Shown here piece after piece: positions 49,759-51,502 of a stretch of 51,502 nt of DNA. Position numbers and translations under genes: made by a program. Each line of letters opens with the position of its first letter. Position 1 is the stretch's first letter. Source of the DNA: Escherichia coli (GTDB lineage Bacteria > Pseudomonadota > Gammaproteobacteria > Enterobacterales > Enterobacteriaceae). The stretch is taken from the NCBI RefSeq assembly GCF_003334255.1, contig NZ_QOWU01000037.1; one strand, 5' to 3'. Under the pieces are notes generated by a model that was not told the DNA's origin, made no database searches, and saw only the letters and a list, made by a program, of their open reading frames with translations.

Positions 49759-49771
49759 TTTCTTATGCACC

Positions 49772-49787
49772 CTGTGGATTTATACAT
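49772..49787 (-). promoter_or_regulatory. Weak LexA-box-like motif upstream of dinB
   Basis: Minus strand ATGTATAAATCCACAG (CTGT-N8-ACAG with one mismatch); unusually close to start. Confidence 0.25.
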
Positions 49788-49816
49788 ATAAAGAGATTAT
49801 ACACACAAAAGCAAAA

Positions 49817-50587
49817 TCAGTAAGTGCCGCGTTTATTCGGATTCACGCTAAACTTCCGTAAAGCATTACCCGACTTAAGCACCTTTGAAGCTTGCTCATT
49901 AGCTGAGGCTGTGAAGGTGCTTTTTCCATTCTCAACTTTGACACTTTTACCACAATTGATACGGGCTTGAAGTTGCTCATTAGTGAGTTCACTCGTAGAG
50001 CGATTATATAACTCCTGACACAGCAACATACCATTACCTAAACTTGTTGTAGTGTTACCTGTATTCTTCTTAGAAGTTGCACCACCATCATTCGTGGTAG
50101 CTGTTTTGCCAGTAGCTGCTGAGACATCAGTTTGTCCTACGATTGAACGAAACTCTACACCTTGGAAGGTCATCTGAATACGAAGACCGTTAGCAATGGT
50201 ATGCTCTTTACTCGCTTTAAACTGAGTAATGATACTATCAGTGATAGCTATTCCATCTCTACAAACAATAGTGATGATTTGCTTCTGGTCTCGCCATTGT
50301 TCAACCGTAGAAATAAAGGTTTCTACAAGTTGCCCCTGTCTGGTTAATAGAACTGAACCCGTCGAATCAACCACTACAACACCGCTAATAGAGATGGTCT
50401 TAGGTGCTCTCTGAACATTATCAGTGATAGTTTGCCCCGATTGCATAGCCTGAGTTGTCACCATCATCGGTGAGTCATAGTCCATCTGTTCAGTAGCTGT
50501 TAAGGCAAGAAAAGATTCTACATTATCTCTAAGGTGAAAATAGATACCATCTTTACCTGAGTATCTAATTTGCTTTGTGTCAAACAT
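49817..50587 (-). CDS. Hypothetical Thr/Ser/Gly-rich protein (256 aa), low GC
   Basis: ORF with no recognised domain; start 44 bp from IS end; stop ~50 bp before dinB. Confidence 0.5.
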
Positions 50588-50630
50588 TGTTGTTATTCCT
50601 ATTCTGTTAAGCGTGAGCTACGTGAAATCT

Positions 50631-51425
50631 TGAACCGCCCCGGAAATCCTGGAGACTAAACTCCCTGAGAAAGAGGTAAACAGGATGACTAAAAATACTC
50701 GTTTTTCCCCCGAAGTCCGTCAGCGGGCGATTCGTATGGTTCTGGAAAGTCAGGATGAATATGACTCACAGTGGGCGGCAATTTGTTCCATTGCCCCAAA
50801 GATTGGCTGTACGCCGGAGACTCTGCGTGTCTGGGTTCGCCAGCATGAGCGGGATACCGGGGGCGGTGATGGAGGGCTCACCACCGCTGAACGTCAGCGT
50901 CTGAAAGAGCTGGAACGTGAAAATCGTGAACTGCGCCGCAGTAACGATATCCTTCGCCAGGCTTCCGCTTATTTTGCGAAGGCGGAGTTCGACCGCCTCT
51001 GGAAAAAATGATGCCACTGCTGGATAAGCTGCGTGAGCAGTACGGGGTCGGACCGGTATGCAGCGAACTGCATATTGCCCCGTCAACGTATTACCATTGT
51101 CAGCAACAGCGACATCATCCGGATAAACGCAGTGCCCGTGCGCAGCACGATGACTGGCTGAAGAGAGAGATACAGCGCGTATACGATGAAAATCATCAGG
51201 TGTACGGTGTGCGTAAAGTCTGGCGTCAGTTGTTACGGGAAGGAATCAGGGTGGCCAGATGTACAGTGGCGCGCCTCATGGCGGTTATGGGACTTGCCGG
51301 TGTTCTCCGGGGTAAAAAGGTCCGCACTACCGTCAGCCGGAAAACCGTTGCCACAGGTGACCGCGTAAACCGTCAGTTCGTGGCAGAACGTCCTGACCAG
51401 CTGTGGGTGGCTGATTTTACTTACG
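50631..51425 (+). mobile_element. IS3-family insertion sequence (IS629/IS1203-like), 3' portion missing or interrupted
   Basis: Terminal repeat TGAACCGCCCCGG at 50631; orfA then orfB; similarity to recalled IS629 ends after ...gattttacttacg at ~51425. Confidence 0.75.
50685..51011 (+). CDS. IS3-family transposase OrfA
   Basis: 108 aa [33 protein letters not shown]...; HTH + leucine zipper. Confidence 0.85.
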
Positions 51426-51490
51426 GTGTGCCCGGAGTTCAGGGCGGGCATGGATGCTTAAATGAACCGCGAGTCTGTCTGGAATATTGA
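51008..51490 (+). CDS. IS3-family transposase OrfB, N-terminal part only (truncated)
   Basis: [30 protein letters not shown]...; overlaps orfA (frameshift junction AAAAAATG); catalytic DDE region absent. Confidence 0.7.
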
Positions 51491-51502
51491 ACCGGTAACT
51501 CA

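Follow-up and report, generated by a model that had tools for sequence, protein, structure and literature searches.

Serine-integrase elements are known from inside genes: Listeria A118 lies in comK, Bacillus SPbeta in spsM and skin in sigK, and all three split and inactivate the host gene until they are excised. SpyCIM1 of Streptococcus pyogenes is a small phage-like chromosomal island in mutL, and phage-inducible chromosomal islands (PICIs) and cfPICIs are marked by tyrosine integrases, temperate helpers and genes that redirect capsids or packaging. Here we describe the boundary between dinB and a putative integrative element of about 11 kb in a 51,502-nt stretch of Escherichia coli DNA (contig NZ_QOWU01000037.1 of assembly GCF_003334255.1), which we call the window. 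The dinB product is an error-prone polymerase, regulated by the SOS response and by RpoS, that is behind stress-induced mutagenesis.

By analogy, the closest counterpart of the putative element is PLE of Vibrio cholerae, a phage-inducible chromosomal island-like element and a parasite of the virulent myovirus ICP1 (PMC9410903). Both are small integrated elements with a large serine recombinase (LSR) and a replication module of their own, without capsid or terminase genes, and both are tied by gene content to a virulent myovirus. They differ in that no sequence relationship is shown between them, and the host and the putative helper lineage are others, here E. coli and the Ounavirinae; the element also has tape-measure and tube-initiator homologues and a LexA box on its recombinase gene, and its target is the protein-coding gene dinB rather than a repeat. 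With A118, SPbeta and skin it shares LSR integration in a coding sequence, a 2-bp core and imperfectly symmetric attP arms; unlike them, it leaves the dinB open reading frame (ORF) intact, with an in-frame GTG from the arm in either orientation, and its palindromic AT core and two natural orientations are unusual. Like SpyCIM1, it is a small phage-like island in a gene of DNA repair or mutagenesis whose expression it could alter, but the recombinase type and the target are different, and at dinB the promoter and operator are exchanged rather than the operon interrupted. The PICIs and cfPICIs resemble it in size (~10–15 kb), in being integrated, in having a replication module and in being without most virion genes; none of their tyrosine integrase, temperate helper or capsid and packaging redirection genes was seen in the element.

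A hybrid attachment site within dinB

The last 7.5 kb of the window contain, in order, pepD (+), remnants of prfH and rtcB, yafP-yafO-yafN-dinB (−), a 256-aa ORF (−) and an IS3-family element (+). Three features define the junction between dinB and the DNA upstream of it:

48706–49758, − strand: dinB (DNA polymerase IV), 350 aa from the GTG at 49758–49756 (MKIIHVDMD...)
49748–49749, no strand assigned: AT crossover dinucleotide in dinB codons 4–5, the sole bases common to attB and attP at the junction
49725–49772, − strand: attR hybrid site by alignment, made of the attP arm of the tube-initiator side (49750–49772), the AT core and the dinB-side attB arm (49725–49747)

The original prediction had noted that the protein matches DinB from KIIHVDMD on and that its first codons and upstream DNA depart from K-12, and alignment to the reference bears out both points. 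The protein is K-12 polymerase IV from K-12 residue 3 on and matches the NCBIfam equivalog model NF002677 over its full length (543.9 bits; cut-off 256), which places it in the polymerase IV family. None of the 1042 nt that run from 49747 to the stop codon is mismatched with K-12, and positions 44000–49755 are 100% identical to it.

The K-12 identity of dinB stops at the AT dinucleotide at 49748–49749, within codons 4–5. We aligned the K-12 attB with both junctions of 1218KP, GB089 and APEC O18 and with the window. In K-12 the site reads ...CACTGTATACTTTACCAGTG TTGAGAGGTGAGCA ATG CGT AAA ATC AT|T CAT GTG GAT...; attL is native sequence up to ...AAAATC-AT, followed by GATTTTCACTTCC..., and attR is ...AGTGAAGATT-AT-TCATGTGG... 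The reconstructed partners are therefore CGTAAAATC-AT-TCATGTGG for attB and AGTGAAGATT-AT-GATTTTCACT for attP, and because only AT is common to both, we take it as the crossover dinucleotide. Copies in the reverse orientation match the element arm exactly as far as 49748, and the match to the empty site of strain G1/2 ends at 49749. The reconstructed attP is dyad-symmetric at 17 of 23 positions per side (P about 2e-5), as is normal for an LSR site. The junction is thus of the kind that marks an LSR element, a hybrid att site with a 2-bp crossover and dyad-symmetric attP arms.

The same junction recurs elsewhere. The window, 1218KP, GB089 and ten more public loci have the same 75 nt of element DNA beside the core, and the attR arm is shared unchanged by 12 loci in addition to those first aligned. 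In 1218KP, GB089 and APEC O18 the 256-aa ORF adjoins dinB as the last gene of a 10.5–11.5-kb block between lafU and dinB. We conclude, with a probability of roughly 0.85, that positions 49750–50630 are the right-hand end of an ~11-kb integrative element inserted by an LSR at the AT of dinB, and we hold the structural explanation, serine-recombinase integration at dinB, to be secure to the same degree. Insertion is site-specific, at the AT in codons 4–5, and moves the native dinB promoter, LexA box and Shine-Dalgarno sequence to the opposite junction. The element arm gives dinB an in-frame GTG. An insertion sequence (IS) of the IS629/IS1203 type, with a group II intron inside it, came later, 44 bp upstream of the 256-aa gene.

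The change in dinB had originally been ascribed to an IS-associated rearrangement, in which an IS629-mediated rearrangement or deletion joined foreign DNA to dinB and altered its 5′-end. An IS3-family element does lie ~840 bp–0.9 kb from the dinB junction, and IS insertions recur in the element family (MS1737, TUM9757). However, the junction is an attR that is identical in IS-free intact elements, where it has the same serine-recombinase att anatomy, and the IS borders the element's own intergenic DNA, so that it interrupts the element and does not adjoin dinB. We rejected an IS origin of the junction, very improbable as it is, because the IS-free copies and the att anatomy already contradict it. 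An assembly artefact, with chimeric joins at repeats near the contig end, was also considered, as the window ends in an IS-plus-intron that is repeated, and contigs typically break in such places. Against this, the junction of dinB with the 256-aa gene is present in 8 complete genomes and many independent assemblies, and the IS-to-intron junction occurs at 99.7–99.8% identity in many other records, plasmids as well as chromosomes. The only join unique to the window is the IS insertion point upstream of the 256-aa gene, and it has a clean boundary at the left inverted repeat (IRL). With the junctions reproduced in independent assemblies, a chimera is scarcely credible and was set aside.

Integration in both orientations

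The LSR gene is present in 26 of 5426 complete E. coli genomes. The tube-initiator-side arm is present in 25 of the 5426, 8 in the forward orientation of the window and 17 in reverse, so that about 25 have the element at dinB, and in the 17 reverse copies the arm match stops exactly at the core. Intact, IS-free copies at the same AT dinucleotide occur in 25 complete genomes and in many draft assemblies. In the reverse arrangement, as in L011, L013, NC101 and TUM9757, the end with the 256-aa gene meets the lafU side, and dinB adjoins the recombinase end. A palindromic core leaves a serine recombinase without polarity, and the occurrence of both orientations fits the palindromic AT core. Whichever way the element lies, its arm provides an in-frame GTG-AAR-ATY, so that the dinB product begins MKIIHVDMD... 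and is one residue short of the native protein. A serine recombinase whose defined core is a 2-bp palindrome, and whose natural target lies in coding sequence, may be of interest to genome engineers.

Close relatives of the window point to a recent event. The human faecal strains G1/2, G6/7 and G8 match positions 1–44000 at 100% identity, and between G1/2 and positions 43145–49749 there is 1 mismatch in 6605 nt, the match ending at the core. G1/2 has an empty lafU–dinB site and a normal 1056-nt dinB; with so nearly isogenic a strain empty, these sequences indicate that gain or loss of the element at dinB is recent. The arrangement of the window, dinB followed by the 256-aa gene and the IS, is in no complete genome searched.

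NC101 and its derivatives have a shortened reverse copy of ~5.5 kb (L020:15061–20470). It keeps the recombinase gene, an invertase-type gene and a helix-turn-helix gene, and just the last 120 nt of the 256-aa gene.

The last gene of the element encodes a tail-tube initiator

The gene next to dinB has a single entry in our feature list:

49817–50587, − strand: tail-tube initiator (Dit-like), last gene of the element, intact at 256 aa (Pfam, PHROG and PDB matches)

As originally described, this is a low-GC ORF directly upstream of dinB on the same strand, with its start 44 bp from an IS end; its GC content is 41%, compared with 54% for dinB, and the IRL begins at 50631. It had been put down as of no known function, which homology and structure searches do not uphold. 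The protein matches the Pfam domain PF21821 Dit_like (E 1.4e-17), phrog_3721 (E 3e-127) and, over residues 4–256, PDB entry 9NDY_A, the 'Tube initiator protein (gp018)' of phage Bas63 (E 8e-106). A Pfam domain and a structurally assigned homologue together make it a Dit-like tube initiator. In the baseplate of the Felixounavirus Bas63 the tube initiator belongs to the hub, as does a fragment of the tape-measure protein, which it contacts (PMC12609058). The window's protein resembles Bas63 gp18 (PDB 9NDY) in matching it over the full length and in the place of its gene, directly after the tape-measure gene; it differs in being encoded by a chromosomal element and in its C-terminal ~60 residues, which are ~40% identical.

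Phage records with a match number 299, nearly all from the Ounavirinae and at about 66–72% identity, and there the homologous gene lies directly downstream of the tape-measure gene. Element copies are 71–98% identical to the window's protein. Their N-terminal domains are as distant from each other as from the phages, and their C-terminal ~60 residues are ~40% identical to the phage versions and 72–100% identical among themselves. By these comparisons the 256-aa gene is a copy from Felix O1-like virulent myoviruses. The original prediction had allowed for a conserved core gene; the gene turned out to be accessory rather than core. Felix O1-like phages are strictly virulent and are used in typing and therapy. 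The element links a chromosomal island to these phages and may therefore affect phage host range or yield.

The tube initiators, compared among the window, GB089, APEC O18, TUM9757 and phages, are mosaic. In GB089 the C-terminal part is identical to that of the window and the N-terminal domain is 75% identical, while the protein as a whole is 82% identical to a Felixounavirus protein, which hints at exchange of the N-terminal domain with phages.

Composition of the element family

Intact copies encode a 514-aa recombinase with Resolvase, Recombinase and Zn_ribbon_recom domains, a small invertase-type recombinase (DNA invertase), conserved proteins of 234 aa and ~70 aa (69 aa) upstream of the tape-measure gene, a tape-measure protein (PF20155; TMP_3) and the tube initiator. 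The 69-aa and 234-aa proteins have no similarity to phage tape-measure chaperones and no PHROG match. A variable middle region holds genes for a Dam methylase, HNH endonucleases and hypothetical proteins. Many copies encode a lambda-O-like replication initiator (phrog_678 and phrog_270, E about 1e-6), and three iterons spaced at 23 bp lie within this gene. These are three copies of ACCTAACCAAAAATTGGTTAC, each with an inverted repeat (L012:3711–3777), and the arrangement looks like a lambda-type origin within the gene. Relatives with other recombinases are found between tonB and yciI (about 11.5 kb) and in yecE. No RNA family was found inside the element with Rfam, and a search of IMG/VR for relatives of the recombinase gave one distant match, at 22% identity.

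Two tail genes might also suggest that the tube-initiator gene is what is left of a decayed temperate prophage of full size, whose tail was Felix O1-like. Genes of both kinds are ordinary in phage tail modules, and the copy in NC101 is shorter, with a deletion. Yet copies of ~10.5–12 kb recur with the same gene order, intact att sites and both orientations at dinB, and are also found between tonB and yciI and, in the part retrieved, in yecE; capsid, terminase, sheath and lysis genes are in none of them. The Ounavirinae are virulent and have genomes of ~87 kb, and the one compared, the complete genome of Suspvirus mistaenkt, shares nothing with the element beyond the tape-measure (~30%) and tube-initiator (~69%) genes. 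In the phage collection no record covers the element; the tube-initiator gene alone matches the Ounavirinae, at ~75% nucleotide identity. A prophage remnant is improbable, and we rejected it on the recurrence of ~10.5–12-kb copies without capsid, terminase, sheath or lysis genes.

With integration and replication modules but just two helper-type tail genes, the integrated element is most likely a satellite or parasite of the Ounavirinae, with recombinase expression wired to the SOS response. PADLOC gave no match for 9 of 10 element proteins and weak coiled-coil-type matches for one 227-aa protein, so none could be assigned to a defence system. In the literature on elements at dinB, satellites of the Ounavirinae or Felix O1, and serine-recombinase satellites in E. 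coli, we found nothing relevant. The family looks satellite-like and apparently undescribed, and the scar in the window points to it by its unusual target and att design.

Beside the invertase-type gene, ~1–1.9 kb are without an ORF (L001:26795–28674). The orientation of this gene differs among copies (L001 28674–29222, compared with L002 28512–29057 and L005 31541–32083), and the adjoining segment may be invertible or highly variable.

Exchange of the dinB control region

The sequence between the tube-initiator gene and dinB contains three features:

49750–49816, − strand: element-derived leader replacing the native dinB promoter, LexA box, Shine-Dalgarno sequence and codons 1–4 (alignment; identical in 1218KP, GB089 and L010–L019)
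49772–49787, − strand: weak LexA-like box ATGTATAAATCCACAG, ATGT-N8-ACAG, with A as the first base of the CTGT half-site
49796–49801, − strand: −10 hexamer TATAAT, perfect, read from the sequence of the element-derived leader

The native dinB promoter, its LexA box (CACTGTATACTTTACCAGTG), its Shine-Dalgarno sequence (GAGGTG) and the ATG with codons 1–4 are nowhere in the window. Forward copies have the native promoter and LexA box on the strand of the recombinase gene, 98 nt before it. A strong LexA box, CTGGATAAATATACAG, also abuts the ATG of that gene; its heterology index of 4.8 falls among those of real boxes. In place of the native region, dinB has a leader with a GC content of 29% (49759–49816), a weak Shine-Dalgarno sequence (AAGAAA) and a GTG start. 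The LexA-like box itself includes an alternative −10 sequence, TATAAA, and 18 nt before this is TTGTGT.

The single weak LexA-like motif noted originally beside the GTG is ATATGTATAAATCCACAGGG at 49770–49789, and scoring with an approximate matrix agrees that it is weak, at a heterology index of 13.5. By comparison, the 21 real boxes behind the matrix have indices of 0.1–10.0, that of the native dinB box is 7.7, and nowhere in the window is there a site below 10. The sequence ATGT-N8-ACAG is thus outside the range of the E. coli boxes and does not qualify as a LexA operator on this scale. It is kept in all forward and reverse copies, and because of this it may still bind LexA weakly; the APEC O18 variant, ATGTATAAATATACAG, is nearer the consensus, with an index of 12.0.

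These features leave room for the view that ATGTATAAATCCACAG is a working LexA operator and that the element restores SOS control to dinB. The box is 13 nt upstream of the downstream GTG and abuts the upstream one, much as the native box is 16 nt from the native ATG; it has a −10-like TATAAA where the native box has TATACT; and it is the conserved sequence just described, nearer the consensus in APEC O18. In addition, the arm that faces dinB in reverse integrants places the strong box of the recombinase gene, CTGTATRTTTATCCAG, and then TATAAT before dinB. On the other side, the C of CTGT is an A, and the score is worse than that of every one of the 21 boxes on the approximate matrix. We consider such a working operator doubtful.

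Returning to integration at the AT core, we infer that dinB-yafNOP is here no longer under its native LexA-repressed promoter. The gene is probably expressed from the leader of the element, with TATAAT or TATAAA, a poor LexA half-site, a GTG and a weak Shine-Dalgarno sequence, and it is plausible that the SOS response controls dinB-yafNOP less strongly or no longer, and that translation starts less efficiently. The original suggestion that dinB control had been rewired therefore stands as to the replaced control region and the native LexA operator, which is absent from the window, but not as to the IS as its cause. An exchange of operator, Shine-Dalgarno sequence and start codon would give natural E. 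coli lineages, including the studied strains NC101 and APEC O18, altered regulation of polymerase IV, and carriage of the element could, if this is true, alter stress-induced mutagenesis.

Taken together, a joint reading can be put forward tentatively: the element would belong to an undescribed group of ~11-kb self-replicating LSR elements of E. coli with Felix O1-like tail genes, a counterpart of PLE, of which the dinB lineage inserts both ways at a palindromic AT with a GTG in both attP arms, places its recombinase under SOS control by its own LexA box and the captured dinB promoter, and swaps the operator of a mutagenic polymerase. Several observations weigh against integration and its proposed consequences. 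The window stops short of the recombinase gene and of whatever else the element may have in this strain; an LSR gene with Resolvase, Recombinase and zinc-ribbon domains is in all intact copies elsewhere. An exact match to the excised attP (AGTGAAGATTATGATTTTCACTTCC) is absent from IMG/VR and from the JGI metagenomes, a weak negative because attR itself was found in just 4 metagenome contigs. Satellite behaviour is read from gene content, to which PADLOC added no defence match. A consensus scan finds no qualifying promoter in the leader, on the dinB strand from the 256-aa gene to dinB, and no terminator is predicted there, so that read-through from the tube-initiator gene is possible. Finally, the LexA-like box, with one perfect half-site and conservation among copies, may keep some binding.

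The dinB start and downstream genes

The maximal ORF of dinB is 48706–49770 (354 aa), by way of an in-frame upstream GTG at 49770–49768, and the 350-aa form is the one picked by gene callers in 8 related loci and in GB089 and NC101. The N-terminal catalytic Asp of DinB is Asp8 in K-12 numbering. It is part of the product if translation starts at GTG 49758 or GTG 49770, but not if the start is the ATG (49737–49735 in the window) that PGAP picked for the 1032-nt dinB of 1218KP, APEC O18 and TUM9757. Annotation pipelines vary accordingly in carriers of the element, between 1032 and 1053 nt. RefSeq calls in L001, L005 and L021 are inconsistent, either 1053 nt (GTG AAG or GTG AAA) or 1032 nt (internal ATG), and the 1032-nt call would drop the N-terminal catalytic Asp.

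The genes downstream of dinB are unchanged:

47498–48654, − strand: yafN (48361–48654), yafO (47960–48358) and yafP (47498–47950), downstream of dinB and 100% identical to K-12

Several strains with the element lack the yafN-yafO toxin-antitoxin pair: there yafP comes straight after dinB, its start codon overlapping the dinB stop codon (L001:19107–20138, L002:19107–20159, L012:10830–12331). The pair is present in the window, K-12, APEC O18 and NC101.

An IS and a group II intron at the end of the window

Beyond the tube-initiator gene the window holds the following:

50588–50630, − strand: the 43 nt left of the intergenic region that separates the tape-measure gene of the element from its tube-initiator gene, aligning with L010 up to the IS end
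50631–51426, + strand: 5′ part of an IS3-family element of the IS629/IS1203 group, with the IRL from 50631, orfA (50685–51011), a pseudoknot (50966–51082) and orfB codons 1–139
51427–51502, + strand: first 76 nt of a group II intron (5′ GTGTG) in orfB; same junction in MB46

The intergenic region is 173 nt long in intact copies, and the IS cuts it at 50631, 44 bp from the ATG of the 256-aa ORF. The IS is 97% identical to annotated IS1203, its terminal repeat starts TGAACCGCC, and its frameshift pseudoknot matches Rfam RF01497 ALIL (121.5 bits, the only Rfam match at the end of the window); it is thus a member of the IS629/IS1203 group of IS3, with its right end beyond the window. The original prediction had orfB cut off at about 51425. 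Homology to the IS does stop at 51426, but orfB is, on this alignment, interrupted by a group II intron rather than truncated. Intact IS1203 continues ...TTACG|TCAGCACATGG, and in the window and MB46 a GTGTG sequence follows TTACG. The insert in MB46 is 2270 nt long, contains ltrA and ends with group II domains V–VI (RF00029, 64.9 bits), after which orfB resumes; the copy in MB46 is 99.7% identical to that of the window, which holds the first 76 nt of the intron.

Transposase genes of IS629, IS911 and related elements are reported as homing targets of the intron E.c.I4 (PMC3522654). The intron in orfB is probably E.c.I4, with which it shares the 5′ GTGTG, a fixed site in an IS629-type orfB and, in the MB46 copy, ltrA and domains V–VI.

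IS3-family insertions recur in or near the tape-measure and tube-initiator genes (L008:2940–5026 and L021:23042–26427, among others). They include an IS1203 in the tube-initiator gene at yecE (MS1737) and an ISEc52 in the tape-measure gene of TUM9757, and this recurrence suggests a hotspot or repeated inactivation. The intergenic region contains an inverted repeat, CTACGTGAtTTCT ... AGAtTTCACGTAG (L010:9828–10000; window 50588–50630), and the insertion point of the IS in the window coincides exactly with the outer edge of the right arm.

At the other end of the window, positions 1–38500 (equivalent to L031 in G1/2) are a lambdoid prophage with a contractile-tail module, located at tRNA-Thr (thrW) beside proA. 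This prophage bears iss, an ompC-like porin gene and the pinE invertase, and is 100% identical in G1/2, G6/7 and G8.

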